In this document: in pieces, positions 2,832 through 38,830 of the stretch
Layout of the letters: the number at the start of each line of letters is the position of its first letter
How positions within the stretch are numbered: position 1 is the stretch's first letter
Assembly (NCBI GenBank): GCA_026196875.1
Contig: JAPHTP010000043.1
Span: 12,660 to 76,659 of the forward strand
Direction: 5' to 3'
Source of the DNA: Kangiellaceae bacterium
Lineage (GTDB): Bacteria > Pseudomonadota > Gammaproteobacteria > Enterobacterales > Kangiellaceae
DNA: 64,000 nt
The notes under the pieces: model-generated
What the model was told of the DNA's origin: nothing
Seen by the model: only the letters and a program-made list of their open reading frames with translations
Database searches by the model: none
Program-made: the position numbers and the translations under genes

Positions 2832-2834
2832 AGA

Positions 2835-2863: not shown

Positions 2864-2873
2864 GGATTCTCTT

Positions 2874-2887: not shown

Positions 2888-2952
2888 TTTTTGCAACGAA
2901 AGGCGTATAGTCTAATTCATAGGGCGGTAGGGAGTACGGAGGAAAATAATTA

Positions 2953-5949: not shown

Positions 5950-5975
5950 TTAACCAGGTTGTGTCGCAATAAGAG

Positions 5976-6017
5976 AAGGCTAACCTGGCGTTGAGTGGGT
6001 TAGCCTTTTCTTGTTTT
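5976..6017 (+). terminator. Rho-independent terminator after the TBDR gene
   Basis: AAGGCTAACC…GGTTAGCCTT stem followed by a T-rich tract. Confidence 0.5.
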
Positions 6018-6086
6018 ATGTGGTCGAAATTGTTGTAATGAAATAATTTAGCTCAATCATTGAAACAAAAATAAATAGTAGTAGTC

Positions 6087-6809
6087 ATGGCGGATTATCA
6101 AATACTAAATAATAAAGTTCATCAAACAGTGAAGGTGGACACACCGTTAGCCAGTCAAACAAATTCAAATGTTGATGCTATCGTAATTTTTCCGACTGAG
6201 TTTGGTGAGATTCAAAAAGAATACCCGATCGTATTTCGCAAAAACCCTCAAACTGGCGAGTTTGCTTGCTTTTGCTTGTTTGGATTGGAACAAGGAGAAA
6301 ACCTTTTCTTTAACAGCGATAATTGGAAAGCTCATTATTTGCCTGCAGCGATTGCCAGAGGTCCTTTTTTAGTCGGATACCAAAATCAAATTCGTGACAA
6401 CCAAACGGTAAAAGAACCTGTCATCAGTATAGATATGAATCACCCGAGCGTTAATGATCAGCAAGGAGAAGAGTTATTTGCTCAGGATGGATCGCCAAGC
6501 CAATATTTACAAATGATTCAGAAGCGATTACTCGCTATTCACCATGGAAAACAATTCGAACAAGATATGTTTCAGCAGATGTTAGCATTTGACTTAATCG
6601 AGCCATTTGCGATCGAAGTCCAATTAAATAACGGCCGTCAATTTAAATTAGAAGAAAATTATACAATCCATCAAGAAAAGTTATTTTCGCTGACTGGAGA
6701 ACAGTTAGAAGTTCTAAATAAAAAGGGATTTTTACAAGCTGCATATGCGGTTTTGGGTTCGATGAGCAATGTTGGTCGATTAGTCGAAATGAAGAATAAC
6801 CAGGGGTAA
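6087..6809 (+). CDS. SapC-family protein
   Basis: 240 aa cytoplasmic. Family recalled as a companion of TBDR and tryptophan-halogenase genes in CUT loci. No search run. Confidence 0.45.
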   Translation: MADYQILNNKVHQTVKVDTPLASQTNSNVDAIVIFPTEFGEIQKEYPIVFRKNPQTGEFACFCLFGLEQGENLFFNSDNWKAHYLPAAIARGPFLVGYQNQIRDNQTVKEPVISIDMNHPSVNDQQGEELFAQDGSPSQYLQMIQKRLLAIHHGKQFEQDMFQQMLAFDLIEPFAIEVQLNNGRQFKLEENYTIHQEKLFSLTGEQLEVLNKKGFLQAAYAVLGSMSNVGRLVEMKNNQG

Positions 6810-6813
6810 AAAG

Positions 6814-15204: not shown

Positions 15205-17814
15205 TTAGTCCTTTGCGCATCTAATACTTGCATCTTTATTGGCATAAGGAACAATTTTGACGTCACTAATAATCAGCGCAAATTTTCCTTTCGTTTCTAT
15301 CATAAATGGAGAAACAATTTTGTCCATAGTAGCGCCTTTATTGGCAAAACAGGAGACTCCTATGCTCAATCTTTGCCAGCGGTTTAGAGGCGCTGATCCA
15401 AACACGTGAGATATATCCATCGCAGGTTCGCATTCTTGCTCGCAACGCATAGTGAAATAGACTGGTTTAGTTGGTGGTGTACTGACTTGAAAATCAAAGC
15501 TTATCGCAGCGTCAGCTTCAAAGTAACCCCGCAAATCGTAAGGGAAGTTATCGTTTATATCAAAAGCTGTATTTGCTTTGCCTTGAAACTCAATCTTTCT
15601 GGCATCTTCCTGGACTCGCCTGTCAGCGGTCTGATAAGTGATATATTGATTCGCAAAATGACTTGAATATATTAGCTTCCGTTGTTGATTAAATTCAACA
15701 GACGCTCGCCACGGAAACTTAAACAGGTCAATATTATTGAGTGCTTTGTCTTGGAGTTGATTGGTTTCGTCTAAAGGATATTTAATCGCATTGGTGTCTC
15801 CATATTTCATTCCAAATCCTAATGAAAATAAGGGCTTATCATCGGGGTCATTAATACTCGCATTCTGAGTCGAAGTTGCTGGCCATGAAAAAGGTAAAGT
15901 CCCTTTGAAGTCGTGGTGAGTTGTACCGTCTTTTTCTGCAAAAATAACCTCAGCTACTCCCTGTCCTTCGGTGCCTGGTAACCATGCAACAACGAATGCA
16001 TCTGATGCATTGAGCTCTGCGTTAATCCACAGCGGTCGGCCACTAATAAAGATAGAAACTATTGGGATATTTTGTGCCTTTAATCTTGTTAGGAGTTTTA
16101 AGGCAGTTTTATTCCCTCGTTGAAACTCAAGATTATCAAGGTCGCCATTACCTTCAGCGTAGGGATCTTCTCCAAATACCACTATAGCGATGTCGGGTCT
16201 CTGACTAAAACTTCCATCAGGTGCAAGTTCGACGCTCCCCCCCGCTTTTTCTACTTGGGATTTTATTCCCTGAAATATCGAGGTGGCGCCTGGAAAATCT
16301 TGGTTTAGATTACCGGTTCCCTGCCAAGTGATGCTCCAACCGCCGCTTTGTTTTCCGATATTATCGGCGCCGTCTCCGGCTACCAGAATTTTTTGTGTTG
16401 GCGAAAGGGGCAAAAGTCCCTGGGTGTTCTTCAGTAGAATCAAAGACTCTCTCACCGCTTGTCGCGCGATCTCACGGTGCGAGTGGTGTCCAATCCATTC
16501 GGTTTTGGCTGATAGAGGCCGTTCTGCGGGACTCGCCTTATCAAATAATCCGGCGCGTAGTTTCACTCTTAAGATACGACTTACCGCGTCATTGATACGC
16601 TCAATTGGGATCTCTCCTCGCTTAACCTGTTCAATGGTATTTTCTAAAAGCGGTTTCCAGGCATCGGTTGGCACCATATAAATATCCAATCCAGCGTTGA
16701 CGGCTTGCGGGCAACTTTGGTTGCTACAGTTTTTGACCTGACCATGACCGTTCCAATCGCCAACGACTAATCCATCGAATCCCATTTTGTTCTTGAGTAC
16801 TTCCGTTAAGAGGTAATGACTACCGTGACTTTTCTTACCATTCCAACTGTTAAATGAGGCCATCACTGTCTGCGCGCCGGCTTGCAATCCACCGACATAA
16901 CCCTGTGCATGGAATTTAAACAATTCGACTTCAGTGATTTCAGTATTGCCTTGGTCATCGCCTTTGGTTGTGCCGCCATCACCGATAAAGTGTTTTACTG
17001 TTGCAATCACACTTTCGGGGCCAAATAGGTCTTCGTTAGCTACCCCTTGCAGGCCTTTAACAATTGCGCTCGAATATTGACGAACTACTTCAGGATCTTC
17101 CGAATAGCTTTCATAGGTTCTGCCCCAACGATCATCCTGAGCTACGGCAACCGTTGGTGCAAATACCCAATCGATTCCTGTGACCATGACTTCCTTAGCT
17201 GTTGCTTGAGCGATACGTTTGATCAGATTAGGGTTTCTGGTTGCGCCCAACCCTATATTGTGTGGAAATAAAGTAGCACCGATTACATTGTTATGGCCGT
17301 GAACCGCGTCAGTACCCCACATGGTTGGAATAGTCGAACCATCGAGGGAGTCGTCAATAGATGCCTGGTACATCGATTCCGCTAGGGCAATCCAGTTAGC
17401 CGGTGTTGAGTGTTTGTTCTTGTTAGGGAAGGAGCCTCCGCCGTTTAGGTAAGAGCCGAATCCATAACGACGCATATCCTCAACGGTAAAGTCACCAATT
17501 TCCGGTTGGATCATTTGGGCAACTTTTTGTTCTAAAGTCATTTGCGTAAGTATTTCATTGATCCGCAATTCGACTTCGTCTGCTTTTGTCACATCAGATC
17601 TGATCAATGGCCAAAGTTCTGATGAGGAGTCAGTTGATTGGGAAGAAGCTTGATTATCTTCGAGAGATAAATCCCCTCCTGCAACCTCAGATGTTGTTCC
17701 ATGCGGATCGCTACAAGACGCTAATGCCCCTGCTATTACAAAAATTACTGCGAAAATGCCAGCTGATTTGAGTGATTCTGCAGATGGCGCAGTTTTTATT
17801 CTTTTTTGATTCAT
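15205..17814 (-). CDS. GH3 β-glucosidase / exo-1,3/1,4-β-glucanase, lipoprotein
   Basis: 869 aa. Lipobox LASC. GH3 catalytic region GFDGLVVGDWNG plus a C-terminal extra domain. Confidence 0.85.
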   Translation of the reverse strand: MNQKRIKTAPSAESLKSAGIFAVIFVIAGALASCSDPHGTTSEVAGGDLSLEDNQASSQSTDSSSELWPLIRSDVTKADEVELRINEILTQMTLEQKVAQMIQPEIGDFTVEDMRRYGFGSYLNGGGSFPNKNKHSTPANWIALAESMYQASIDDSLDGSTIPTMWGTDAVHGHNNVIGATLFPHNIGLGATRNPNLIKRIAQATAKEVMVTGIDWVFAPTVAVAQDDRWGRTYESYSEDPEVVRQYSSAIVKGLQGVANEDLFGPESVIATVKHFIGDGGTTKGDDQGNTEITEVELFKFHAQGYVGGLQAGAQTVMASFNSWNGKKSHGSHYLLTEVLKNKMGFDGLVVGDWNGHGQVKNCSNQSCPQAVNAGLDIYMVPTDAWKPLLENTIEQVKRGEIPIERINDAVSRILRVKLRAGLFDKASPAERPLSAKTEWIGHHSHREIARQAVRESLILLKNTQGLLPLSPTQKILVAGDGADNIGKQSGGWSITWQGTGNLNQDFPGATSIFQGIKSQVEKAGGSVELAPDGSFSQRPDIAIVVFGEDPYAEGNGDLDNLEFQRGNKTALKLLTRLKAQNIPIVSIFISGRPLWINAELNASDAFVVAWLPGTEGQGVAEVIFAEKDGTTHHDFKGTLPFSWPATSTQNASINDPDDKPLFSLGFGMKYGDTNAIKYPLDETNQLQDKALNNIDLFKFPWRASVEFNQQRKLIYSSHFANQYITYQTADRRVQEDARKIEFQGKANTAFDINDNFPYDLRGYFEADAAISFDFQVSTPPTKPVYFTMRCEQECEPAMDISHVFGSAPLNRWQRLSIGVSCFANKGATMDKIVSPFMIETKGKFALIISDVKIVPYANKDASIRCAKD

Positions 17815-19094
17815 ACATTACCCTGATTTGTGTCGGCTGAAACTTGATAGCCCTTAAATCCATAAAAAGCGATATAGAAATAACATAAAACCGGAATGAT
17901 AAAAGCGAGTTGTATCCCGATAAGATCTGCCGCTACACCTTGAAGTAAAGGTAAGATAGCGCCGCCGACAATTGCCAGGCATAAGACCCCCGCCCCTTTA
18001 CTAGTTAATGGTCCTAGCTTTTTTATTGCCAACGTAAAAATGGTAGGGAACATTATGGAGTTACATAAACCGACTAGCACGATTGCCCACATGGCGATGT
18101 GACCCTTAGCGAGAATGCCAATTAACAACAACGTGATTGCCATCAAGGCGTTAAAAGTTAAAACCTTGTTGGCTGCGATATGATGCATAATTACGGCCCC
18201 AATAAAACGACCAATCATTGCGCCGCCAAAATAATAGCCAATATATTTTGATGCTTCGGACTCGTGCATAGCGCCAATAGACGGCATTGAAAGAAAGCTG
18301 ACTAAGAAGCTCCCAATGCCGACTTCAGCACCTACATACACAAATATCCCTACTGCACCAAGAAAAAGGTGCTTATGTTGCAGTACCGACTTGGTTGATC
18401 CGGTATTTTGCTGGTCCTGGTGTTCTTCGACGGCGGGGAGTCTTAAAAAAGCGAACACCAGGGCCAACAAAAATAGCGCCACAGCAAGGGACAAATAAGG
18501 GATCTGTACAGCCCGATTAATTTCATTAGTTGTCGATTCTGATGCGCTAACCAACGCGAGCCCCGCGAGAATAATTGGTCCGATCCAAATGGGAGCAACA
18601 GTAGTTCCAAGCGAGTTAAAAGCCTGGGTTAAGGTTAATCGTGATGAAGATTTCTCTGGCGTACCAAGAATGCTGACATAAGGATTGGCAGAAACTTGCA
18701 AAATAGTGATCCCGGAAGCAAGCACAAAAAGTGCTGCAAGAAAAAGGGCGTAGATTCTAAATTCTGCGGCGGGATAGAAAAGTAAGCAACCACTTCCAGC
18801 GACGAGTAGTCCCGTCAATATTCCATTTTTATAGCCTACTTTTGAAACCAAAGTTCCGGCGGGAATTGAAACGACAAAATAGGCGCCGAAAAAACAAAAC
18901 TGAATTAGCATCGCTTGGGTGTAATTCAGTTGGAACATATCTTTCAGATAAGGGATCAAAATATCATTCAGTGAAGTTAAAAATCCCCACATAAAAAAAA
19001 GTGAAGTCAAGGAGACGAGCGCAAATCGAAAGCTTGATTTTGGCGGATCAATTTCAAAATTTGTTGAACTGGGTATTGCCGTTGGTCCTGCCAT
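17811..19094 (-). CDS. MFS sugar transporter, FHS (glucose/galactose GluP, fucose permease) family
   Basis: 427 aa, 12 TM. N-terminal FALVSLTSLFFMWGFLTSLNDILIPYLK typical of GluP/FucP. Start overlaps the GH3 stop. Confidence 0.8.
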   Translation of the reverse strand: MAGPTAIPSSTNFEIDPPKSSFRFALVSLTSLFFMWGFLTSLNDILIPYLKDMFQLNYTQAMLIQFCFFGAYFVVSIPAGTLVSKVGYKNGILTGLLVAGSGCLLFYPAAEFRIYALFLAALFVLASGITILQVSANPYVSILGTPEKSSSRLTLTQAFNSLGTTVAPIWIGPIILAGLALVSASESTTNEINRAVQIPYLSLAVALFLLALVFAFLRLPAVEEHQDQQNTGSTKSVLQHKHLFLGAVGIFVYVGAEVGIGSFLVSFLSMPSIGAMHESEASKYIGYYFGGAMIGRFIGAVIMHHIAANKVLTFNALMAITLLLIGILAKGHIAMWAIVLVGLCNSIMFPTIFTLAIKKLGPLTSKGAGVLCLAIVGGAILPLLQGVAADLIGIQLAFIIPVLCYFYIAFYGFKGYQVSADTNQGNV

Positions 19095-19236
19095 ATTTTA
19101 TTTTCCTTATTCGCACCTATGATTTAAGCGGTAATATTTTTAAGCCTGAGTCTTACCAAGAGAGTTGGTCTCCGAGCAGTTCAGAACTGCCTCGAAATTA
19201 ATCAGTTGACCTTTTTCAAAGAAACCTCTAATCTAA

Positions 19237-19250
19237 TGTAAGCGCTTTCA
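19237..19250. promoter_or_regulatory. Operator copy TGTAAGCGCTTTCA in the divergent MFS / GH1 intergenic region
   Basis: Reverse complement equals the 2874 site. Confidence 0.45.
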
Positions 19251-19295
19251 TTTATACCACACTCATCCCGAATAGCAATTGTTTTAAGAAAAAAA

Positions 19296-19309
19296 GAAAG
19301 CGCTTACAT
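19296..19309. promoter_or_regulatory. Operator copy AGAAAGCGCTTACA, 59 bp from the previous site
   Basis: Reverse complement equals the 8351 site. Confidence 0.45.
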
Positions 19310-19482
19310 TAGCTGTAATGCAGACTCGGCGTTTTGGATGAGGGGTATAAAGGAGCGGTTTGCGCTTGACTGGGGGAATAGGATGCACGGTCAATTCGCA
19401 GATAAGTATATATAAAACAAAAAGTTACCCTCAGTCCGGACTATTTTTTGTTGATTGATTGGAAACTCAAAAACGAATTAGT

Positions 19483-20811
19483 ATGAAGTTAAATTTAGCG
19501 CCGAATTCGGCATTAAAATCGAAGGATTTTACTTATGGGGTGGCGACTGCATCATTTCAAATTGAAGGTAACCTTGAAGGTAGACTTCCTTGTATTTGGG
19601 ATACATTTTGCGGTACGCCGGGCAAAATTAAAGATGGATCAAATGGCGAAATTGCATGCGACCATATTCGGCTTTGGGAGCAGGACATTGATCTCATCGA
19701 ATCACTAGGCGTAGATGCTTATCGATTTTCGGTTTCTTGGCCCAGATTAATAAACCAAGATGGTTCCTTGAATGATAAAGGTTTGGATTTTTACCTGGCG
19801 TTGCTTGACCGTCTCAACCAGAAGAATATCAAACCATTTGTGACTCTATACCATTGGGATTTGCCGCAATATTTAGAAGATATCGGCGGATGGCTTAACC
19901 GTGATACAGCCTATCGGTTTCAAGATTATGCAGATATCGTATCGCGCAAGTTTGGTGACAGAGTCTTCTCTTATGCAACTTTGAATGAACCATTTTGCAG
20001 TGCGTACCTAGGTTACGAAGCCGGGATCCACGCGCCGGGTAAAATTGGAAAGCAGTTTGGTAAAAAGGCGGCGCATCATTTATTGTTGGCCCATGGCTTG
20101 GGTATGCAAGCCTTGCAACAGAATAGCCCAAATTCGAAAAATGGAATTGTTTTGAATTTTACCCCGGCCTACCCGGAAACCGGTAAAGAAGAAGATGTGG
20201 TTGCTTGTGAATGGGCAAATCAGAATTTTAACGACTGGTATATTAAGCCGCTGTTTGATAAATCCTATCCGCCTATTATTGAAGAAATTTCTGAAGAAGA
20301 ACGTCCGCAAATCAAGGATGGCGACATGGAGATCATTGCACAACCGTTGGATTTTCTTGGGGTTAACTTTTACACCCGAGCAGTTTATAGAGCCGACAAG
20401 GAGAATCGTTTTAAAGAAATTCCACCACAAAATGTTCCGGTAACCGAGATGGGGTGGGAAATTTATCCGCAAGCATTTACAAATCTGTTAACCTCTCTGA
20501 ACCATCGTTATGCACTGCCTGAAATTTATATTACTGAAAATGGTTCAGCGATGAATGACGCTTTTATTGACGGGGAAGTAAATGATGTTGACCGAATCGA
20601 ATACCTGCAAGCACACCTTGAAGCGCTTGACCAAGCTATCGCACAAGGTGTAAACGTCAAAGGATATTTCGCATGGAGTTTAATGGATAATTTTGAGTGG
20701 GCAGAAGGTTACTTAAAGCGGTTCGGAATAGTTTATGTCGATTATTTAAATCAACAACGGATCATAAAGTTGAGCGGTAAGTCATACAGGGATTTCATTT
20801 CAAACCGCTAA
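19483..20811 (+). CDS. GH1 β-glucosidase
   Basis: FQIEG, TLNEPF (acid/base) and ITENG (nucleophile) motifs. The track starts at TTG 19459; ATG at 19483 fits the family N-terminus better. Confidence 0.9.
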   Translation: MKLNLAPNSALKSKDFTYGVATASFQIEGNLEGRLPCIWDTFCGTPGKIKDGSNGEIACDHIRLWEQDIDLIESLGVDAYRFSVSWPRLINQDGSLNDKGLDFYLALLDRLNQKNIKPFVTLYHWDLPQYLEDIGGWLNRDTAYRFQDYADIVSRKFGDRVFSYATLNEPFCSAYLGYEAGIHAPGKIGKQFGKKAAHHLLLAHGLGMQALQQNSPNSKNGIVLNFTPAYPETGKEEDVVACEWANQNFNDWYIKPLFDKSYPPIIEEISEEERPQIKDGDMEIIAQPLDFLGVNFYTRAVYRADKENRFKEIPPQNVPVTEMGWEIYPQAFTNLLTSLNHRYALPEIYITENGSAMNDAFIDGEVNDVDRIEYLQAHLEALDQAIAQGVNVKGYFAWSLMDNFEWAEGYLKRFGIVYVDYLNQQRIIKLSGKSYRDFISNR

Positions 20812-28500: not shown

Positions 28501-28854
28501 AGCATGTTCCTTCGAGTATTTAGTATTGATTTTATTAGCGCTCTCGTTTGGCCGACGGAATACAGCGAGTGATTTATATAGACCTCTATTTTTCTATTTT
28601 TGTCTCAAAAATAGCTTATACAATTGCCATTTTGATACTTATAGATGAATTGCATATTTAATTGTTTCTTCAGCCAGTTATCCAGTTATAAGGCTAGGGT
28701 ATCAGTCTAACTTAAAGCCTTGCCGAGCAAAAGTTGAATAACAAATCTAAGGCAAGTCATAGAACTAGATTATCCAATTGATAATTAAGGAATAAATCTA
28801 GCTCTTTCTCGTTAACTCTGCAGCCTTTGAAACAAATTGCAATGATTTAGACTT

Positions 28855-28895
28855 GACATAAAATGTCCTGATTTGCTAATTTGACATAATATGTC
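28855..28895. promoter_or_regulatory. Two 13-bp palindromes GACAT-N3-ATGTC, each overlapping a perfect TTGACA hexamer, upstream of the PspA-like gene
   Basis: GACATAAAATGTC at 28855–28867 and GACATAATATGTC at 28883–28895. Seen directly. Centres are 28 bp apart. Confidence 0.35.
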
Positions 28896-28982
28896 GTAGG
28901 CGATATTTAAGCTCAAATTCGAATTTCAGTCGAATCAAAACGACAAGATAGCTAAGAATCATGACTAATAGGAGAAGTATCA

Positions 28983-29666
28983 ATGAGTATTATGCAAAAA
29001 ATTATGACTGCAGTTCGAGGTAGTGCCAGGGAGTTAGGGGAAGCAGTGGTGGATTCTCAGTCAATGCGTATTTTTGAGCAGGAATTATTCGAGTCAAAAG
29101 AGAACCTTGCTGCAGCAAAGGATAGCTTAACTGAGATTATGGCTAGCAAGATGGCGACTGAGCGTAAAATTGACAGTTGCAAGAATGAAATCACTGAGCA
29201 TGAGTCTTACGCCAAAAAGGCGCTGGAAAAAGGTGAAGAATCATTAGCTTTGGAGATTGCTGGTAAGGTTGGTGGTCTTGAAGAGAATTTAAATCAACTT
29301 AAGGAAGATTTGTCTCATTACGAGAAAAGTATCGAGGTACTAAAAACTCAAATTGCAAATGCGGAGAAGTCGCTAACTACTCACGAAAGAGACCTAAATA
29401 TAGTCAAAACGCGTGAGTCGGTACAAAAAGCATCGGTATCGGTTTCCCATACGATTAAGGAAAACAATTTGTCAGTGGATAAAGCTGGCGAAACCCTTGA
29501 AAAAATCAAGGAAAAGCAGCAACATCATGCAGACAAGGTTGCCGCCGCTGAAGAGTTGGCGAAAGAAGAAAGTAGCGTGGATTTAGATGAAAAGCTGAAA
29601 GCCTCAGGGATTAAAAAGGATCTTAATTCTGCTGAAGCGGTTTTGGCTCGGATCAAGGGTGGATAG
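28983..29666 (+). CDS. PspA/IM30-family protein, YjfJ-type paralog
   Basis: 227 aa all-coiled-coil. C-terminal DLDEKLKASGI…AEAVLARIKGG closely matches remembered E. coli YjfJ (…DLDEKLAEAGIGG…QDVLARLQ…). Confidence 0.7.
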   Translation: MSIMQKIMTAVRGSARELGEAVVDSQSMRIFEQELFESKENLAAAKDSLTEIMASKMATERKIDSCKNEITEHESYAKKALEKGEESLALEIAGKVGGLEENLNQLKEDLSHYEKSIEVLKTQIANAEKSLTTHERDLNIVKTRESVQKASVSVSHTIKENNLSVDKAGETLEKIKEKQQHHADKVAAAEELAKEESSVDLDEKLKASGIKKDLNSAEAVLARIKGG

Positions 29667-29760
29667 AGAGTTTTAAAAGTTCCGTCTCGTCTCGCTTTGG
29701 GAGAGGGAAGGCGGATAGAGCTTTGGTTATAGGACGTTAAGAAAGAGGAATAAATATCGA

Positions 29761-30330
29761 GTGAACCCACAATCAATTAGAGATTACAAAGTACTCCTAT
29801 TTTTCATTGCATTGCTCTGGATTGTGGAATTGATCAATCTGTTGATTGGTCACCAACTTAACCAATTTGCTTTAAGGCCGCGCGACCTTTCCAGTGTATA
29901 TGGGATCTTCACTGTTCATTTTTTACACTGGGACTTCGCGCACTTATTATCGAATTCGATTCCTCTCGCCTTTTTAGGGTTTCTGGTATGTGCCACCGGG
30001 CGTGCGTTAGTTGTGACAGCCACCATTATGCTGAGTAGCGGAATAGCGGTTTGGTTATTTGCGAGAAATGGCTTGCACGCTGGAGCCTCAGGCCTTGTAA
30101 TGGGCTACTGGGGTTACTTAATAAGCAACGCATTTTTTGATCGAAGTCTGAAAAATCTCTTTATAGGGATAATTACTATTGCGCTCTATGGAGGAATAGT
30201 GTTTAGTTTGTTAGATTTTCGAGCTACAACCAGTTTTGAAGGGCATCTGTTTGGATTTGCCGCAGGTGTAGTGGTCGCTTGGGGATACAGTAAGCGGCTG
30301 GGGAATAATAAAAAATTAAGACAAAGTTGA
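29761..30330 (+). CDS. Short rhomboid-family intramembrane serine protease
   Basis: 189 aa, 6 TM. GASGLVMGY (GxSG) and HLFGFAAG (catalytic His helix). GTG start. Confidence 0.55.
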   Translation: MNPQSIRDYKVLLFFIALLWIVELINLLIGHQLNQFALRPRDLSSVYGIFTVHFLHWDFAHLLSNSIPLAFLGFLVCATGRALVVTATIMLSSGIAVWLFARNGLHAGASGLVMGYWGYLISNAFFDRSLKNLFIGIITIALYGGIVFSLLDFRATTSFEGHLFGFAAGVVVAWGYSKRLGNNKKLRQS

Positions 30331-30340
30331 GGGAAGTATT

Positions 30341-30991
30341 ATGGATGCATTTTTAGCTGTAGCTGGCAGTTTTCCCGTTTCGATTTATACCACAATCAAC
30401 CTGGTGATCATTGGCATTTGGTTTTTTATGGCATTAGGACTTTTCGATATTGAAGTTTTTGATGTAGATGTGGACATTGAAATAGATGCCGACGCGGGAA
30501 GTTTAAGTGGTGTGACAGGGTTTCTAGCTACGCTAGGCCTAACCGGTGTACCTATTTTTATCGTTCTAACTATTATTTTTTTCTCGTCGTGGATAGTTTC
30601 CTATTTTGCAGTTAAATACGGTCTATTTTGGAATAATTCCGAAATTATACGTTATCTAGTAGGAACTGGAATTATGGTTGGAAGTTTTTTAATCTCAATT
30701 CCGGTTACTGCTCAAGCAGTAAAACCATTAAGAAAATTCTTTGCAAAACTTAACAATACAACCACGGCAAAGTCTCTTAAGGGAAAACAAGCAACCGTTA
30801 GAACATCTAAAGTTAATTCATCCTTTGGTGAAGCAGAATGTGTTAACGATGGTGCTAGTTTAGTACTTAAAATTCGTGCAGACGAAAAATATGAATTAAC
30901 TAAAGGCGATTTAGTTAGAATAATTGAAGTTGATCAAGAGGGATCAATTTATCATGTAGTTCCTGAAAAGGAATTTGGGTTAAATGAATAA
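30341..30991 (+). CDS. yqiJ: YqiJ-type membrane protein with C-terminal NfeD-like OB domain
   Basis: N-terminal TM helices, acidic DVDVDIEIDAD segment, C-terminal β-rich NfeD-like region. Immediately precedes the flotillin gene, as in E. coli yqiJK. Confidence 0.65.
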   Translation: MDAFLAVAGSFPVSIYTTINLVIIGIWFFMALGLFDIEVFDVDVDIEIDADAGSLSGVTGFLATLGLTGVPIFIVLTIIFFSSWIVSYFAVKYGLFWNNSEIIRYLVGTGIMVGSFLISIPVTAQAVKPLRKFFAKLNNTTTAKSLKGKQATVRTSKVNSSFGEAECVNDGASLVLKIRADEKYELTKGDLVRIIEVDQEGSIYHVVPEKEFGLNE

Positions 30992-31018
30992 ATAATTGTA
31001 ATTTAGTGAGGGAATAAT

Positions 31019-32983
31019 ATGGGCGCTGATATTTTAATTTTACCTGGGGCAATACTCGCGATAATTCTGTTTATCGGAATATTTGTAGCCTCTGTTTACA
31101 AGAAAGTTCCACAAGGTTATGCACTTATAGTGAATAATTTAAGAGCCAAGCCAAAAGTAAGCTTTACCGGAGCATTGGTAATTCCAGTAATTCATAAAAT
31201 GGAAGTAATGAAGATTTCTCTGATTACGCTAGAGCTTGATCGTCGTGCAAAAGACGGCCTCATTTGTAAAGATAATCTTCGAGCAGATATTACAGTAGCT
31301 TTCTATCTACGAGTGAACGAAACTCAAGACGATGTATTAAAAGTCGCCAAAGCAATATCTGTCGAGAGAGCGTCTGATAAAGAAGCGGTCAATCAACTTT
31401 TTAATGCCAAATTCTCTGAAGCATTAAAAACTGTTGGTAAGCAAATGGAATTTCTCGAACTATTTGAAAACCGTATTCAATTCCGTGAGAAAATTGTTAA
31501 AGTTATCGGAGATGACTTAAATGGTTACGCGCTAGAAGACGTTGCAATTGACTATTTAGAGCAAACCCCAAAAGTTCAGCTCGATCCAAACAACATTCTT
31601 GACTCTGAAGGTATTCGCCGAATCACTGAAGTAACGGCCACCCAAAATATCGAAACCAACCGATTAGAGAAAGACGAAGAGCTAGCTATCACTAAGAAAA
31701 ATGTTGAAACAAAAGAAGCATTACTTTCCTTAGAAAGGCAAGAAGCGGATGCAACCGCTCGCCAGCAGCGTGAAATCGCTACTATCCAAGCTCGTGAAGA
31801 AGCTGAAACTCAAAAAGTTGAAGCTGAAGAAAAATTAAAGTCTGAACAAGCTCGCATTGCGACGGAAGAACAAGTTTCTATCCGCGAAGAAAATAAAATG
31901 CGCCAGGTTGAAGTGGCTGAGCAAAACCGTGAGCGTGCAGTAGTTATTGAGAAAGAGAAAGTTATTCGTGCACAACAAATGGAAGAAGTTAATCGCCAAA
32001 GGGAAGTTGAACTATCCGTAATTGATAAAGATAAAGCGCTTGAAGAAGAACGTAAAATAATTGCGCAAACCATCAGTGAAAGAATCGCAGTTGAAAAGAA
32101 AGTTGCTGAAGAAGAAGAACGTATTAAAGAAGTTCAAGAAGTATCTGAAGCGGATCGTTCTAAGCAAGTAAAAGTTTTGGCGGCAGAAGCATCCGCACAA
32201 GAAGAACTGGTTCACACAGTAAAACGTGCTGAAGCGGATGAGAAAAAAGCAGAGCATAAAGCTCGTGAAATTAACATGATAGCTCAAGCTGAGTTAGAAG
32301 CTGCATCTAAGAAAGCGGAAGCGGAAAAGAAAGTTGCGGAAGGTACGCAAGCTTCTCAAGCAGCATCAGGTTTAGCGCAAGCGAAGGTTATGGAAGCAAA
32401 AGCCGATGCATTTGAGAAAGAAGGATTGGCTGAAGCGCGAGTCCAAGAAGCGAAAGCAGTATCACTTGAGAAAGAAGGACTGGCTGAAGCTACCGTGCTA
32501 GAAGAGAAACTAACTGCTGAAGCGCGTGGTAACGAAAATCTAGGTAAAGCAGATGCAGTTGCTAAGAAAGAAATTGGCCTGAGCGAAGCTGATGTACTAC
32601 GCGAAAAAGGTAAAGCTGAAGCCGATGCATTGGTTGAAAAGTTTGCAGCGATGAACAATATGAGTAAAGATTCCAGAGAGTTCGAAGAATTCAGAATGAA
32701 TCTTGAATATCAGTTAAGAGAGGTTCTAGCCTCTATCGATGCGAACAAAGAAATTTCTGGCGACCAAGCTGAAGTTCTTGCTGCTGCACTCAAAAATGCC
32801 AATATCGATATTGTTGGTGGACAAGGCGACTACTTTGACAAATTGGCCAAAGGTATGGGGGCAGGTAATGCAGTAAATGGCTTCATCGAGAAAAGCCCCA
32901 TTGTACAAGCTTTAATGGAAAAACTTTTAGGTGGTGCAAGCAATAAGCCAGAAGTTATAGAGCCTTCTAAGGATGAGGCATAG
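31019..32983 (+). CDS. yqiK: Flotillin (SPFH/band-7) family protein, YqiK-like, with extended EA-rich coiled coil
   Basis: N-terminal TM anchor plus SPFH domain (…VFHKMEVMKISLITLELD…). Long E/A/K-rich coiled coil with internal tandem repeats at about 32395–32510. Confidence 0.8.
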   Translation: MGADILILPGAILAIILFIGIFVASVYKKVPQGYALIVNNLRAKPKVSFTGALVIPVIHKMEVMKISLITLELDRRAKDGLICKDNLRADITVAFYLRVNETQDDVLKVAKAISVERASDKEAVNQLFNAKFSEALKTVGKQMEFLELFENRIQFREKIVKVIGDDLNGYALEDVAIDYLEQTPKVQLDPNNILDSEGIRRITEVTATQNIETNRLEKDEELAITKKNVETKEALLSLERQEADATARQQREIATIQAREEAETQKVEAEEKLKSEQARIATEEQVSIREENKMRQVEVAEQNRERAVVIEKEKVIRAQQMEEVNRQREVELSVIDKDKALEEERKIIAQTISERIAVEKKVAEEEERIKEVQEVSEADRSKQVKVLAAEASAQEELVHTVKRAEADEKKAEHKAREINMIAQAELEAASKKAEAEKKVAEGTQASQAASGLAQAKVMEAKADAFEKEGLAEARVQEAKAVSLEKEGLAEATVLEEKLTAEARGNENLGKADAVAKKEIGLSEADVLREKGKAEADALVEKFAAMNNMSKDSREFEEFRMNLEYQLREVLASIDANKEISGDQAEVLAAALKNANIDIVGGQGDYFDKLAKGMGAGNAVNGFIEKSPIVQALMEKLLGGASNKPEVIEPSKDEA

Positions 32984-33133
32984 TTATTAAATAACTACAA
33001 ACATAAGGTAATGTCATTTCAGACCGTAGCGGAGGAATATCCTAATTACGATCGCGAAATCTTGTGGAGATCTCTCCGCTATAGTCGAGATGACAAACAA
33101 TTCTAAAAGTCTCAGGGAAAGGTAGGGATTTTT

Positions 33134-36100
33134 GTGACTGATCAAGCAAATCAAAATAATTCGATTGTAGAGCAAGCGGTTGCTGAAGGTGGCGCTTACG
33201 ATATTATTCGTCAGCGACTAACAAAGCAAGGTAACTCGCTCGAAGAACTAACCGCTAAAATAAATAGCAAACGTCAAGAAGAATTCGGCACAACTGAAAT
33301 GAACGTGTTGGGTCGTATGCGGCTGCGTACCGAAAATAATTGCCAAGCAAAAGATTTAGTAATCGTCGGCGACTATGTTCTATTTGGTTACAACGTTTTT
33401 ATTGGATTGCGAAAAGATATCAAAGTTGATGATGTTTTCTCTCTTTATCGACTTACTGAGAAAGAAGAGCAATACGACTTAAAACATGTTCCAACTACAG
33501 AGTCTTTTCTAAATGATCAGAGATTCTTAGGTGACTTCAATGAGCTTTACGCTTATTACAAAGATACGTCCCTTTCGCAGCTCGTACTTAAAGACAATAA
33601 GCTCCTTGCCTCTTTTCAAATTGGAGATCGACTAACTGATGTTCGAGTATTTAGGTGGGAAGTTTCTGCTGACGGTAAACGAATTGAGTATATCGACAAT
33701 CGAGGCGAACGTGACTTGCAGTTGCCAGACAGCCATGATTTTGAATGGATAGAATGTCAGCGCGATGATGTGATTGACGGGCGTAACCCGCATATCAACA
33801 TTTTGGACACTTTATTTATTGACAATATGCGTGGCGATATCACAATTAAAATTGAGGATAATACTAACGTTGGATTAGGGATTTATTCAGAACCTGTTGA
33901 AGAAAAAAACCAGTCACTCGATGATGCCGAATTTTATTTCACCGATCTTAACCAACTTATATTACTTAAGATCAAACCTTACTTAGAAGAAGATTACCGC
34001 TATCTGGTTTTCAATCGGCTACATGAAACCATCACGCGTATTGATCAAATTGGTGACGCTTGTCAGCTACTACCGGAAGACCACGGGATAATCTTCCCAG
34101 GTGGTTACTATCTAGTAACGGGTGAATATAAAACCTTTGATGATGAACTAGATGGTTTGGTTTATAAAAGAACCCTTCGTTCACCGAATGGTGAAGACGT
34201 TCTTTATATATTCTACCAACCTGAAACCAACATTATCGCCTTGTATCCATACAATCTGATCGAAAAGTCACTACAAAATCCGTTGTTTGGGCATGGCTAT
34301 GGATTTTATGAAGATGGCCGCATGATCATCTTTTACGCTGAAGATGAACCAAGTCGAGTTCACCCCCTACAAATTTGGCAGACGCCCTACTTCTCTGAAG
34401 TTTTCGCCAGCCAACAACCTGAATCCACGAGCTTCTATGGGAAGATTGGCAACGCCGAATTAGTCAGAGGGATCTCTGAACTCTATAGTATTGCTAAGAG
34501 CGTTGCTTCTGAAGATGTGTCCGCTACCCATTATCATGAGTTGAGTGAAAGTTGTTCAAAAATATTTGATGCTTACTTTTGGTTAGATTCAAAAGAGCTA
34601 AATGAAATTGCCAAGCTCCTTAAAGAAATTGCGCAGACTTCAGAATCTGTTATTGATGAATATGAAAAAGTTGAAAGTATCCGTCAGCAATCAATTAAGG
34701 CGTTACGTGATTCCGAAGCTCACCAAAAAGAAATCATCCAACATATAGAACCTGATAGTTGGCATTCACCACAAGACTTTGTAGATGGGCTTAAAGATAT
34801 ACGTCAACATCGTGGTCATTTAATGAGTATTCGAGAGTATCGCTATATCGATACTCAAAAGATCGATTCACTTGATAAAGAAATTGGTGATATCGAGGAT
34901 AGACTAAATCAACAAACAGTCGAGTTTCTTGCTTCAGAAGGTTCGCTTAATAGCTACTATAAACGGCTTGATGATGTCGCCAAAAATAGCGTTAAGTGTA
35001 AAAGTAATGCTGAGTTAAAACCCTTTATTGAATCGCTCGATACTATGGCGCAGGGATTAGATCTAATCTCCGAAATGATGGCGACACTGAAAGTCGATGA
35101 TGCCACTTTGCAAACTAAGATTGTTGACGCGGTTTCTTCACTTTACGGAAAGCTTAACCAGCAAAAAGCGCAGCTCGATCATCAAAGAAAATCAATGGGT
35201 AGTAAGGAAGCCACCGCTCAGTTTGGCGCGCGACTAAAATTACTTAATCAAAGTATTCACAATGCCATCAGCCTTTCTACTACTCCGGAAAGATGTGACG
35301 AACAGGTTTCTCGTCTATTAGTTCAGTTAGAAGAACTTGAAGGTGAATTTAGCGAATACGATGAGTTCATTGCCGATGTTATTACTAAGCGAGAAGAGAT
35401 CTTTGAAACTTTCGAAGAACATAAACAAAGTTTAATTGAAGCTCGCCAACGAAAAGCGCAATCGCTAGCCGAGGCAGGCGAGAGAATTCTGCAAAGTATT
35501 CAACGACGCGTTAAAAGATTTAATGAAGCAGACGAGCTCAATGCATTCTTTGCTGCGGACGGTCTAGTTAATAAAGTTCGCGATTTAATCGACCAGCTTG
35601 CTGAGCTAAACGACAGCGTCAAATCAGAAGATTTGAGTGCACGTTTAAAAGGGATCAAAGAACAATCGGTTCGCTCTTTAAGAGATAAAAGTGACTTGTA
35701 TGAAGAGGGCGGCAACGTAATAAAGTTAGGGCCGCGGCACAAATTCTCCGTGAATAGCCAAGAATTAGATTTAACTTTATTACCAAAAGACGACGGTTTG
35801 AATATTCGCCTTACGGGAACAGATTATTCAGAGCCGTTAAACAGTGGCAAACTGGATTCACTCAAGGATTATTGGCATATCACTGTTCCCTCTGAGTCTG
35901 AAAAACTATATCGATCGGAGTATCTGACCTATCAGATACTAAACTCGGCGATAAAAGGCGAGAACGGATTAGATTGGCACAAGTTAACCGCTGCGGCTGC
36001 GGATCCTAAAGTACTTAACCAGCTGGTTACAGAATATGCGACTCCGCGTTATAAGGAAGGTTACGAAAAGGGGATCCATGATTTTGATGCTGCTTTAATG

Positions 36101-38524
36101 TTAAAGCAGATAGTGCCAGTTTATGAAATTGCGGGCGTATTTAAATATCCTCCCCTAGCACGTGGTCTTGCCTGCATCTTTTGGGCAAACATGCAGCGAG
36201 AAGATTCGACCAAGTTATGGGAACAACGGGCCGGCAATGCCCGTCGGATGGTAGAACTATTTAATAATACACAGGCAAAGTCTGATTTGGTGGTGGAAAT
36301 TAAAAAGGTTTTAACGGACTTCTTAAAAGAACACCAGCTTGAGCAAACAGACCAAGTTATCTCAAGTGCTTCAGAATACTTATGTGATGAATTGGCTCAA
36401 GATCGTGTCGGCTTTGCGACATCTAAATATGCACGCCATTTGTATGATGAGTTTAAAACACATCTCGAAACCCAAGGTGTGTGGCGCGACTTTATTAAAA
36501 GTCTTGATGATTTAAAAGGAAAAGTCGGCAAGCGTTGGGCACTATCTGCCAGTTGGTTAAACGCCTATGTTAAATCACAAAATAAAACTGAAAACCAAGC
36601 ATTCATTGGCGAAGCAATAGGTATTTTAAATGCAGAACAACGCATCAGTCGAACCGATCATGAGATAGATATTCAATTTGAAGTGGAAGGTTTAATGGGC
36701 AGTCATTCAACGATTGAAGATAGAAAGCTTTCGTTGAGATTGGATGAGTTTATTGAAAGAAACCTTTATCACCAAAATAATGTTATTCCGGGTTATGAAT
36801 CTTTCTTAAAAACCAGGCACGAAGTCGTAACCGAGCAAAGAGATTTCTTACGTCTGAACGAGTTTAAAGCAAAACCGCTATCCTCTTTTGTAAGAAACAA
36901 ATTAATCAATGAAGTTTATCTCCCTATTATTGGAGATAATTTGGCGAAGCAAATGGGGACTGTTGGTGATAGCAAGCGATCTGACTTAATGGGCTTGTTA
37001 TTAATGATCTCGCCTCCTGGTTACGGTAAAACTACATTGATGGAGTATGTCGCCGATCGATTAGGCTTGATCTTTATGAAGATTAATTGCCCGGTTATTG
37101 GGCATTCCGTTACTTCGGTTGACCCTGCTCAAGCAGACAACAGTGCTTCACGGCAAGAATTAGAGAAGCTCAATCTAGCCCTGGAAATGGGTAATAACGT
37201 GATGCTATATCTGGATGATATCCAGCATACTAACAGCGAGTTCTTGCAGAAATTCATTTCTCTGTGTGACGGTACCAGACGTATTGAAGGGGTTTGGAAA
37301 GGTCGCACTAAAACTCACGATATGCGCGGCAAAAAATTCTGTGTGGTTATGGCTGGTAACCCATACACGGAATCTGGCGAGTCATTCCAAATCCCGGATA
37401 TGCTTGCCAACCGTGCTGATATCTACAATTTAGGTGATGTACTTAGCGGTAAAGAGAATGTATTTGAATTGAGCTATATTGAAAATTCCTTAACATCTAA
37501 CCCTGTCTTAGCGCCGCTTGCGACTCGCAGTATGGATGATGTGTACAAATTCCTTGATATGGCGGAAGGCAAAGAAATTGCCACTACGGAGCTTTCACAT
37601 CAATACAGTAGCGCTGAAGTAAAAGAGATCGTTGAAGTCTTAAAGAAGTTAAAATTTATCCAGCGGATCGTGTGGCGAGTTAATCAGGAATATATTGCGG
37701 CTAGTGCTCAGGACAATAAATTTAGAACTGAGCCGACATTTAAACTGCAAGGCTCTTATCGAAATATGAATAAGATGGTGGAGAAAGTTTCGGCTATTAT
37801 GACTGAAGATGAATTGCAAAGTCTGGTCGATGATCATTACCAAGGTGAATCGCAATTATTGACAAGCGGTACAGAAGCTAATTTACTTAAACTTGCCGAG
37901 CTAAGAGATAATTTGACCGAAGACCAAGCAGCACGTTGGGATAAAATAAAAAAGGACTATGTACGCGATAAAGCCATGGGCGGTGATGATGCGGATACCG
38001 GAAGCAAAATTGTTGTTCAACTAAATGATTTGGTCAGCGGAGTAAATGCCTGGAGAGAAAGCGCAGAACACGCTAATCAAAAAGCTCTGCAGGAAAAACA
38101 AACTGATTCGACACAACCTGCTTGGCAAAAAGACGTTGTTACAGCCATCAATCAATTTGGAATGCAGCTAGAAAAAGTTGTTAAAACTCAATCGCAACAA
38201 TTGGCCACCCAATCAAAAGATGCTCAAGTAAAAGATGAGTCGCCGCAAATCGAAAAATTTGCTGAGCTATTACACGAAACGCTCAATCCGCTTGTTCGCG
38301 TTATGAATGGCAAGCTTGATCTAGATTTGGGTACGCATCAAAGGATGACCGAATTAAGTGAAAAGTTGGATAAAATTGCTACTCGTACCGGTCGAACAAA
38401 AGCGGCTGAACGCGGCCTATTTGGTGACGGCCCTATGCAGAAGCGTTCAACTAAAAAGAAATCAGAAAATAAAAAATCAGAGTCTAACAAATCATCAGGT
38501 AATAAATCTGATGAAGATAAATAG
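33134..38524 (+). CDS. Giant (1796 aa) multidomain protein with C-terminal MoxR/AAA_5-type AAA+ ATPase. Function unknown.
   Basis: Walker A ISPPGYGKTT, Walker B LYLDDIQHT, sensor/Arg region VVMAGNPYT…IPDMLANRADIYNL, all MoxR/AAA_5 hallmarks. About 430-aa β-rich N-terminus, about 500-aa coiled-coil middle, basic low-complexity C-tail. GTG start with GGAAAGGTAGGGA upstream. Confidence 0.7.
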   Translation: MTDQANQNNSIVEQAVAEGGAYDIIRQRLTKQGNSLEELTAKINSKRQEEFGTTEMNVLGRMRLRTENNCQAKDLVIVGDYVLFGYNVFIGLRKDIKVDDVFSLYRLTEKEEQYDLKHVPTTESFLNDQRFLGDFNELYAYYKDTSLSQLVLKDNKLLASFQIGDRLTDVRVFRWEVSADGKRIEYIDNRGERDLQLPDSHDFEWIECQRDDVIDGRNPHINILDTLFIDNMRGDITIKIEDNTNVGLGIYSEPVEEKNQSLDDAEFYFTDLNQLILLKIKPYLEEDYRYLVFNRLHETITRIDQIGDACQLLPEDHGIIFPGGYYLVTGEYKTFDDELDGLVYKRTLRSPNGEDVLYIFYQPETNIIALYPYNLIEKSLQNPLFGHGYGFYEDGRMIIFYAEDEPSRVHPLQIWQTPYFSEVFASQQPESTSFYGKIGNAELVRGISELYSIAKSVASEDVSATHYHELSESCSKIFDAYFWLDSKELNEIAKLLKEIAQTSESVIDEYEKVESIRQQSIKALRDSEAHQKEIIQHIEPDSWHSPQDFVDGLKDIRQHRGHLMSIREYRYIDTQKIDSLDKEIGDIEDRLNQQTVEFLASEGSLNSYYKRLDDVAKNSVKCKSNAELKPFIESLDTMAQGLDLISEMMATLKVDDATLQTKIVDAVSSLYGKLNQQKAQLDHQRKSMGSKEATAQFGARLKLLNQSIHNAISLSTTPERCDEQVSRLLVQLEELEGEFSEYDEFIADVITKREEIFETFEEHKQSLIEARQRKAQSLAEAGERILQSIQRRVKRFNEADELNAFFAADGLVNKVRDLIDQLAELNDSVKSEDLSARLKGIKEQSVRSLRDKSDLYEEGGNVIKLGPRHKFSVNSQELDLTLLPKDDGLNIRLTGTDYSEPLNSGKLDSLKDYWHITVPSESEKLYRSEYLTYQILNSAIKGENGLDWHKLTAAAADPKVLNQLVTEYATPRYKEGYEKGIHDFDAALMLKQIVPVYEIAGVFKYPPLARGLACIFWANMQREDSTKLWEQRAGNARRMVELFNNTQAKSDLVVEIKKVLTDFLKEHQLEQTDQVISSASEYLCDELAQDRVGFATSKYARHLYDEFKTHLETQGVWRDFIKSLDDLKGKVGKRWALSASWLNAYVKSQNKTENQAFIGEAIGILNAEQRISRTDHEIDIQFEVEGLMGSHSTIEDRKLSLRLDEFIERNLYHQNNVIPGYESFLKTRHEVVTEQRDFLRLNEFKAKPLSSFVRNKLINEVYLPIIGDNLAKQMGTVGDSKRSDLMGLLLMISPPGYGKTTLMEYVADRLGLIFMKINCPVIGHSVTSVDPAQADNSASRQELEKLNLALEMGNNVMLYLDDIQHTNSEFLQKFISLCDGTRRIEGVWKGRTKTHDMRGKKFCVVMAGNPYTESGESFQIPDMLANRADIYNLGDVLSGKENVFELSYIENSLTSNPVLAPLATRSMDDVYKFLDMAEGKEIATTELSHQYSSAEVKEIVEVLKKLKFIQRIVWRVNQEYIAASAQDNKFRTEPTFKLQGSYRNMNKMVEKVSAIMTEDELQSLVDDHYQGESQLLTSGTEANLLKLAELRDNLTEDQAARWDKIKKDYVRDKAMGGDDADTGSKIVVQLNDLVSGVNAWRESAEHANQKALQEKQTDSTQPAWQKDVVTAINQFGMQLEKVVKTQSQQLATQSKDAQVKDESPQIEKFAELLHETLNPLVRVMNGKLDLDLGTHQRMTELSEKLDKIATRTGRTKAAERGLFGDGPMQKRSTKKKSENKKSESNKSSGNKSDEDK

Positions 38525-38548
38525 AGAAATAAACTTAGGAAATCAGTA

Positions 38549-38830
38549 ATGGCAGTTATTAGTCTAACGCGCGATCATCAGCTCTCGCTGGAAGAAATTA
38601 CCCAGCGAGTAAATGAAATCGCTTTAAAATTAGAGCAAAAGCTTGATATACGGTCTGAATGGGAAAATGAAAATACGCTTCAGTTCCGTCGCAAGGGAGC
38701 CAATGGTAGTATTGAAATTTCTGAAAATTCGGTAGATGTAACCGTTCGATTAGGTATGATGTTTCGCGCCCTTAAAGGCATGGTGCAGCAAGAGTTAGAA
38801 GGTGTTCTCGATAAACAGTTAAATAACTAA
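38549..38830 (+). CDS. Small protein of the 'putative polyhydroxyalkanoic acid system protein' family (TIGR02610-like)
   Basis: 93 aa. Pattern ISLTRDHQLSLEE…FRRKGANGSIEISENSVDVTVRLGMMFRALKGMVQQELEGVLDKQL matches remembered family members. RBS AGGAAAT upstream. 25 nt after the giant ORF. Confidence 0.55.
   Translation: MAVISLTRDHQLSLEEITQRVNEIALKLEQKLDIRSEWENENTLQFRRKGANGSIEISENSVDVTVRLGMMFRALKGMVQQELEGVLDKQLNN

Follow-up and report, generated by a model that had tools for sequence, protein, structure and literature searches.

The 64,000-nt stretch of contig JAPHTP010000043.1 from a Kangiellaceae bacterium (assembly GCA_026196875.1; hereafter the 64-kb window) carries a cluster of six open reading frames (ORFs) on the + strand at 28983–38830, which we name A to F in order of position. 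They encode a YjfJ-type PspA (A), a rhomboid protease (B), a YqiJ-like membrane protein (C), a flotillin (D), a giant AAA+ protein (E), and a small PHA_gran_rgn-family protein (F). The cluster is the Kangiellaceae copy of an already published operon family that includes the bac operon of Pseudomonas aeruginosa, and is a variant and not a new system. With a probability of roughly 0.7, we regard this conserved PspA–flotillin–AAA+ operon as an inner-membrane stress and remodeling module, and most likely it repairs or remodels the inner membrane under stress. A membrane-remodeling or envelope-stress role had been suggested in an earlier note on this DNA, and it fits the orthologous P. aeruginosa operon, which is a single transcript and is induced by stress (PMC10948618; PMC2587700; PMC12041424).

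Gene order was compared across 80 genome loci with a homologue of the giant ATPase, whose ORFs were searched with the proteins of the window. The loci (numbered with the prefix L below) cover Pseudomonas, Cellvibrio, Stenotrophomonas/Lysobacter, Xenorhabdus, Gilliamella, Glaciecola, Comamonas/Delftia, Zetaproteobacteria, and Longimicrobium, and were taken as informative when at least 2.5 kb (for C-D-E, n = 71) or at least 1.8 kb (for D-E, n = 74) of upstream sequence was present. All 71 loci, from Gamma-, Beta-, and Zetaproteobacteria as well as Longimicrobium, keep the order C-D-E with the genes co-directional, and D is followed by E in 74 of 74. Because of the unbroken C-D-E synteny, the arrangement is not due to chance, and a chance juxtaposition was rejected. 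A pair of DUF2170 and PspA genes precedes or diverges from C-D-E in 46 of the 71 loci, a rhomboid of the same subfamily as B is attached in 19 of the 80, mostly directly after E, and a gene for a phospholipase D (PLD)-like protein follows E in 21. The neighborhood search of the giant that the earlier note had proposed thus places flotillin and YqiJ-like genes next to it in every informative locus, with PspA frequently and a rhomboid repeatedly in attendance, in agreement with the functional unit proposed there. The note's view would have been refuted if homologues of the giant were never neighbors of flotillin or PspA genes, which is clearly not the case. C-D-E never varies and forms the core, to which A, B, and F are added less and less broadly in this order.

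Among close relatives, the complete order A-B-C-D-E-F is found in Aliikangiella coralliicola, and A. maris has B-C-D-E-F. Two metagenome contigs contain DUF2170-A-(small gene)-B-C-D-E, with F after E in one of them, one other genome has DUF2170-A-(small gene)-C-D-E-F, and Pleionea and Aliikangiella sp. IMCC44653 have B-C-D-E. The rhomboid gene is located upstream of C in Kangiellaceae and directly after E in other lineages; in nine loci, mostly from Pseudomonas-group genomes, its start overlaps the end of E by 4 nt. Members of this rhomboid subfamily were also found in 25 metagenome loci that extend 2.5 kb or more to either side, and ten of these are linked to PspA/DUF2170 or to C-D-E, three of them in the form DUF2170-PspA-rhomboid. 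Members of the family can do without the DUF2170 gene, which 25 of 71 loci lack, and no DUF2170 homologue was detected in the 64-kb window when all its ORFs of 50 aa or more were searched iteratively. All six genes of the window are co-directional, as had been reported, with gaps from A to F of 94, 10, 27, 150, and 24 nt; the gaps are as short as first described (95, 11, 28, 150, and 25 nt), four of those figures being one too high.

The earlier note had found no described operon that matches this arrangement, but Ravi et al. (2024; PMC11237479) describe an operon class with a CesT/Tir (DUF2170)–PspA (yjfJ family) pair, a protein of three transmembrane (TM) helices of the YqiJ/YuaF prototype, a TM-Band-7-flotillin, a novel AAA+ protein, and sometimes a PLD hydrolase. 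Abbreviated versions of the operon without PspA are more widespread, and a chaperone/ESCRT-like role was proposed for it (PMC11237479). To the same family belongs P. aeruginosa bacABCDEF (PA3732–PA3727), the “biofilm-associated cluster” (PMC2587700; PMC10948618), which is transcribed as one unit according to reverse-transcription PCR and in which a bacA mutation raises BacB–F by 6–13 fold (Wallart et al., 2024; PMC10948618). Expression of PA3731 rises after osmotic shock and in biofilm, and the mutant is impaired in biofilm, rhamnolipids, and virulence (Mace et al., 2008; PMC2587700), while PA3728 is an “ATPase” that is recurrently mutated in cystic-fibrosis isolates of P. aeruginosa (PMC8190622).

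The window carries orthologs of bacB, bacC, bacD, and bacE, with order and strand as in bac. However, the first gene of bac encodes BacA, a DUF2170 protein that may be a regulator or chaperone, and the last encodes the PLD-like BacF, both of which the window lacks, whereas in the window a rhomboid gene separates pspA from the YqiJ-like gene, a PHA_gran_rgn gene follows that of the ATPase, and a palindrome pair is present. A sigma-54 promoter is reported for bac, whereas no sigma-54 motif (-24/-12) was found upstream of A. The P. paraeruginosa locus (L018) has the order DUF2170-PspA-C-D-E-PLD. Its DUF2170 protein matches PDB entry 8q8o with 300 bits; the entry is labeled only “DUF2170 family protein”, and we take it to be the BacA crystal structure of Wallart et al.

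The window also differs from the class of Ravi et al., where the CesT/Tir (DUF2170)–PspA pair is the core and PLD is mentioned. The term “rhomboid” is absent from the main text and one supplementary file of that study, “PHA_gran_rgn” is absent from one supplementary file, the only place searched for it, and no relevant paper was found that combines rhomboid, flotillin, and NfeD. Three features look unreported, namely the recurrent link to a rhomboid, the paired operator with its candidate regulator, and the hairpin between D and E. For the discovery of the operon as such the locus contributes little; its testable additions are the intact rhomboid, the operator pair with the candidate regulator, and the hairpin, which possibly sets the ratio of flotillin to ATPase.

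Gene A (28983–29666, +) encodes a 227-aa PspA/IM30 paralog that is BacB-like (PF04012, PspA_IM30, E-value 4e-37). It aligns from end to end with Escherichia coli YjfJ (26% identity over the full length, E-value 3e-17) and shows no similarity to E. coli PspA (E-value 12), which makes “YjfJ-type”, the name it had been given, the right one; against TIGR02977, the PspA equivalog, it scores 21 bits with a cut-off of 243. The protein belongs to a soluble, all-helical family, and no TM segments were predicted. Position 28983, preceded by AGGAG, is the first possible start codon, and no ORF starts at 28855, where the cluster had been said to begin. The locus differs from the canonical Psp system (pspF-pspABCDE) in that A is not a PspA equivalog and no -24/-12 match lies upstream; a scan of the cluster and of flanking genes found no PspB, PspC, or PspF. 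The C-terminus of A (29570–29666) shares with E. coli YjfJ the motif DLDEKL..GI....SA..VLAR(I/L) despite the overall identity of 26%, and this motif may be a partner-docking peptide.

In E. coli, yjfJ and yqiJK are found at separate loci, as had been stated, and neither is accompanied by a giant ATPase or rhomboid gene. The likeness to yqiJK and yjfIJ consists of D, which is 31% identical to YqiK, A, which is 26% identical to YjfJ, and C, which occupies the YqiJ position. The differences are that the E. coli pairs are apart from each other and that C does not match the YqiJ_N and YqiJ_OB models.

Gene B (29761–30330, +) encodes a short rhomboid intramembrane serine protease of 189 aa with several TM segments, consisting of the membrane core only, and its identification as a rhomboid agrees with a match to PF01694 (E-value 1e-18) and with the residues present. 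H56, H61, N65, G108-x-S110-G111, and H162 are invariant among 14 operon-linked homologues, so the catalytic set is complete, with the GxSG serine, the histidine of TM6, and the H-x4-H-x3-N of TM2, and B looks active. Assignment as a rhombosortase was rejected (27 bits with a cut-off of 84). A second, distantly related rhomboid-like ORF at 62858–64000 (+) runs off the end of the window and matches the profile of the operon rhomboid with an E-value of 3e-06.

Gene C (30341–30991, +) encodes a BacC-family membrane protein of 216 aa with 3–4 TM helices followed by a C-terminal beta-rich domain. It had been named YqiJ (NfeD), for which the topology, the position, and a weak, colinear hhalign match to E. 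coli YqiJ (probability 39%, E-value 3e-4) speak, but which the Pfam and NCBIfam models do not support. No Pfam or NCBIfam model matches C, and the NfeD, YqiJ_N, and YqiJ_OB models match neither C nor five other family members, including that of the bac locus, whereas E. coli YqiJ itself matches both YqiJ_N and YqiJ_OB. Among 18 members of the C family, one matches YqiJ_N (0.0058). C is similar to its counterpart at the P. paraeruginosa locus (5e-38), and its homologues are named DUF1449/YqiJ/OB-fold proteins by other sources. By position, topology, and weak profile similarity, C appears to be YqiJ-like.

The 654-aa product of gene D (31019–32983, +) is a flotillin, as had been claimed; it is of the YqiK type and BacD-like, with one N-terminal TM helix, an SPFH/Band-7 domain, and a long Glu/Ala-rich coiled coil. 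Over 435 residues it shares 31% identity with E. coli YqiK (E-value 1e-47), and residues 1–244 alone match Band_7 (E-value 4.6e-11). The whole protein has no Pfam match, probably because of the long coiled coil. A sequence search of D against PDB chains gave nothing useful.

The giant soluble AAA+ protein of the BacE/PA3728 family is encoded by gene E (33134–38524, +; 1796 aa, GTG start) and has no TM segment, whereas B, C, and D are membrane proteins. Pfam places DUF3686 at residues 36–482 (E-value 9e-193), DUF7902 at 604–687, and the AAA/AAA_5 core at 1289–1414. Clustering at 50% gives 904 representatives for the N-terminal 700 residues, of which 271 have an E-value of 1e-30 or below, and full-length homologues are steadily 1600–1900 aa long down to 26% identity. 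The Walker A motif PPGYGKTT, the Walker B motif Y[LVI]DDIQH, the sensor Asn of AGNPY, and PDMLANRAD are essentially invariant among 120 database homologues, and the Walker A and B motifs are likewise invariant in all 80 genome copies. Walker B (37199–37219 in the window, residues 1356–1362) has Asp-Asp, not Asp-Glu, in 200 of 200 homologues. E had been described as a MoxR-type ATPase; the MoxR class of its AAA+ core is not established, with AAA_5 scoring 25.2 bits (cut-off 22) and classical AAA 28.9 bits; no VWA gene, the usual partner of MoxR, is present in the cluster. “MoxR-type” and “beta-propeller” are plausible but unproven terms for this protein.

A structure prediction of the N-terminus, another suggestion of the earlier note, was carried out with AlphaFold for residues 1–1190, and a second model covers 1180–1700. 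The alignments were shallow (10–12 sequences), and the mean predicted local distance difference test (pLDDT) was 65 and 69, with values mostly of 30–60 in the beta-rich DUF3686 region. The models suggest the order of an N-terminal helix, the beta-rich DUF3686, about 400 aa of long helices that include DUF7902, a small beta unit, a helical domain at 927–1170 (confident), the AAA+ core, and a helical Lys/Ser-rich tail. Foldseek searches of the PDB with the C-terminal model returned only generic AAA+ folds, with Vps4 as the top, weak match of the AAA+ module (E-value 4.6e-4) and NorQ, CbbQ, MCM, and RuvB matching about as well (5e-4 to 3e-3); the unfoldases Cdc48, ClpA, Lon, and FtsH are also among the matches. 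With the N-terminal model there was no match at an E-value of 1e-3 or below, the weak matches being mostly beta-propellers or solenoids. A sequence search of E against PDB chains gave nothing useful, and no paper was found on the mechanism of the giant ATPase.

PspA and Vipp1 are bacterial ESCRT-III proteins, and flotillins are SPFH scaffolds. In the favored reading of an inner-membrane stress and remodeling module, the YqiJ-like C and the flotillin D would build an SPFH scaffold or microdomain at the cytoplasmic face of the inner membrane, and the YjfJ-type PspA (A), with its ESCRT-III fold, would polymerize on the stressed membrane. The giant ATPase may oligomerize via its AAA+ module, dock via its beta-rich and coiled-coil N-terminal half, and spend ATP to remodel or disassemble flotillin polymers, PspA polymers, or clients, as Vps4 does with ESCRT-III. 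The rhomboid would cleave membrane-protein clients held in the scaffold, in the manner of other SPFH–protease pairs, and F would be a lineage-specific accessory. A repressor-type operator pair upstream of pspA may set expression, and the D-E hairpin probably reduces ATPase levels relative to those of the structural proteins. We infer the substrate of the ATPase, the clients of the rhomboid, and the roles of the cis elements from the anatomy of the operon together with established knowledge of PspA/ESCRT-III and SPFH proteins. The likeness to ESCRT-III/Vps4 is that the gene of a polymer-forming ESCRT-III-fold protein lies beside that of an AAA+ ATPase; the difference is that E is about four times the size of Vps4, has no detected MIT domain, and occurs without PspA in a third of the loci. 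Since E occurs without PspA in these loci and never without flotillin, flotillin and the YqiJ-like protein are the most likely direct partners of the ATPase.

Several results weigh against this reading or narrow it. The giant is found without PspA in 25 of 71 loci, and PspA therefore cannot be its only substrate. The rhomboid subfamily stands alone in 15 of the 25 informative metagenome loci, which makes it an accessory that is not dedicated to the operon. The Asp-Asp Walker B suggests that E may turn over ATP slowly or in an atypical way, confidence in the models of E is low (mean pLDDT 65–69), and the null result of the N-terminal fold search leaves the literature as the sole source of a beta-propeller assignment. 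Mobile genes lie between D and E in some genomes, and strict co-transcription of the two is therefore not universal. For the ATPase, the rhomboid, and F, no experiment was found for any organism.

The absence of PspA from 25 of 71 loci with C-D-E is also in keeping with a different view, which we hold to be unlikely, that the operon is an SPFH-scaffolded quality-control hub for membrane proteins and not a machine for polymer disassembly. The flotillin/YqiJ-like cage would corral damaged or orphan membrane proteins, the giant AAA+ protein would extract or unfold them, and PspA would only seal the membrane afterwards, while the rhomboid, or elsewhere a PLD-like hydrolase acting on lipid, would process the clients, on the model of SLP2-PARL-YME1L or HflK/C-FtsH. 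SPFH proteins pair with membrane proteases in HflK/C-FtsH, stomatin-STOPP, and SLP2-PARL-YME1L. The joint presence here of an SPFH protein, a rhomboid, and an AAA+ protein resembles these assemblies by analogy, the catalytically intact rhomboid recurs in the operon with the 4-nt overlap described above, and the fold matches of E include Cdc48, ClpA, Lon, and FtsH. However, the homology of E to FtsH and YME1L is limited to the AAA+ fold, E has no recognizable protease domain or membrane anchor, the rhomboid is attached in only 19 of 80 loci, and the low-confidence model of E gives no judgement on pore-loop features.

Quite doubtful, in our estimate, is a more elaborate form of the remodeling reading, in which the rhomboid, flotillin, and giant AAA+ protein would be the bacterial counterpart of SLP2-PARL-YME1L coupled to an ESCRT-III-type PspA, the giant would be the missing Vps4-like remodeler of PspA and flotillin, and a tandem ribbon-helix-helix-like repressor would act on the paired operators.

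How PspA is actively remodeled or recycled in bacteria is open, as stated explicitly by Ravi et al. (PMC11237479), and the same holds for flotillin. The giant ATPase is invariably linked to flotillin, widespread, and mutated in cystic-fibrosis isolates, and is thus an obvious candidate for the motor.

The induction of the P. aeruginosa orthologs PA3728–PA3732 on infection by two virulent phages (ISME J, 2025; PMC12041424) could point to anti-phage defense by abortive infection, in which the giant NTPase would sense infection and trigger membrane effectors. Giant NTPases and, as in some of the genomes here, single-HKD PLD-like proteins are common in defense systems. However, induction by phage is also a defining behavior of the Psp envelope-stress response, and the vertical conservation of the family throughout entire genera resembles that of a core function. 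PADLOC returned weak coiled-coil noise only, matching PspA to JetC/LmuB, and nothing for B–F. The surroundings are ordinary chromosomal genes with no mobile island: the upstream neighbor is a convergent metallo-beta-lactamase-fold hydrolase gene, which is kept in four relatives, the downstream neighbor is a peroxiredoxin gene, and SF1 helicase, GGDEF, alcohol dehydrogenase, GNAT, and DsbD genes lie farther out. The defense-like reading in the earlier note thus found no positive support, and we consider it very improbable.

E is 100% identical to a protein from a Kangiellaceae metagenome-assembled genome that is named “DNA repair ATPase” at NCBI, and the Pfam text for DUF3686 reads “ATPase involved in DNA repair”. 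Under this name, the giant would be a DNA-repair ATPase whose neighborhood of membrane genes is incidental, an explanation to which we give hardly any credence. RecJ is encoded a few kb downstream in some Pseudomonas loci, but this linkage is confined to one lineage, and the RuvB matches (16 bits with cut-offs of 27 and 282) are far under threshold and limited to the P-loop. Moreover, no nuclease or DNA-binding domain was found in E, no paper was found that mentions DUF3686, and the invariant neighbors in all 71 loci are membrane proteins. The name is probably an annotation propagated without evidence, and the comparison flags a likely database misannotation.

Gene F (38549–38830, +; 93 aa) encodes a small protein of the PHA_gran_rgn/TIGR02610 family (PF09650, E-value 3e-24), and its score of 75.7 bits against TIGR02610 exceeds the curated cut-off of 40.25, in line with the TIGR02610-like identity first given to it. 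That family is defined by proximity to polyhydroxyalkanoate (PHA) genes. A PHA-granule role for F was rejected, as no PHA synthesis or phasin genes were found within 5 kb on either side. F had also been described as a partner of the giant, but such a partnership is not general, as a search of the 80 genome loci yielded no copy of it. It occurs only in the clade where the giant ATPase is at least 67% identical, although the word-indexed homologue search recovered only 10 close homologues of F. In the window and in L081, L085, L086, and L088, it follows the giant gene by 3–24 nt; the upstream gene sets of these loci differ from each other, and so do the downstream genes in the three where these were called (L081, L085, and L086). 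F is a clade-restricted accessory gene.

Two palindromes, TTGACATAAAATGTC and TTGACATAATATGTC, are located 28 nt apart and 88–130 nt upstream of the pspA start (28853–28895, +). No copies of the two 15-mers TTGACATAAWATGTC exist in the 64-kb window besides those at 28853 and 28881, and the first palindrome overlaps a TTGACA -35-like hexamer. GACAT-N3-ATGTC has 25 exact matches in 2.57 Mb of collected loci, nearly all in pairs 28–37 nt apart, and such pairs are found at promoters of DUF2170/pspA or flotillin operons in 12 loci, including the window, from several gammaproteobacterial families. Pairs elsewhere include those in L081 (3578–3621), L085 (2363–2407), L087 (7332–7375), L088 (2970–3014), L019 (7011–7175), L068 (6886–7071), L076 (6972–7132), L082 (18322–18372), L106 (185–232), and L130 (8399–8448). 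Judged from this distribution, the palindrome pair looks like a conserved operator. It is absent upstream of E. coli yjfI and yqiJ, and a literature search for the palindrome found nothing relevant.

Of the 12 loci with a palindrome pair, 10 encode a protein of about 106–112 aa beside pspA or the rhomboid, for example in L085 (3655–3975), L130 (8640–8978), L087 (8663–8977), L088 (4193–4519), L019 (5433–5756, -), and L082 (16176–16496, -). The protein reads like two tandem ribbon-helix-helix units, for which Pfam support is only faint, and it is a candidate repressor for the paired GACATAWWATGTC sites. A search of the candidate regulator against PDB chains gave nothing useful. The window and A. 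coralliicola retain the operator and lack the gene for this regulator. At Pleionea sediminis L082, a DUF2170-PspA operon of the spermine-synthase type, the second operon of this locus, carries the same palindrome pair and is located about 3 kb downstream on the other strand (16176–20125). A scan for sigma-70 promoters and terminators found sites no more frequently than expected by chance.

The gap between D and E contains a stem-loop (33012–33095, +) detected by folding against shuffled sequences. The 166-nt stretch that holds it (32975–33140) has a minimum free energy of -45.1 kcal/mol (z of -3.6), and none of 200 shuffles folds as well. Hairpins of unrelated sequence occur at the same D-E position in five related loci, with z of -2.5 to -3.1. 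No U-tract follows the hairpin in the window or in these five relatives, and an Rfam scan of the window gave no match. The hairpin suggests a processing or stability element that may uncouple the levels of flotillin and ATPase. Insertions into the D-E gap, seen in outlier genomes, include two PD-(D/E)XK transposase-like genes in a zetaproteobacterium (L001, 8036–9936) and NYN and HepT-like ribonuclease genes in Lampropedia (L053, 6892–9986); the gap thus tolerates insertions of mobile or selfish genes.

Further genes accompany the operon at some loci. In L082, genes for a Ser/Thr kinase, a PP2C phosphatase, and an FHA protein (1904–7925) are located directly upstream of, and co-directional with, rhomboid-C-D-E. 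A gene for an MscS-type mechanosensitive channel is located just after the giant in four loci (L028, L075, L077, and L078, from Arenicella and Comamonas), which fits a membrane-tension or osmotic theme. About eight loci encode a Zn_ribbon_TFIIB protein of about 185 aa downstream of the giant, F, or the rhomboid (e.g., L085, 12609–13163; L004, 16633–17199).

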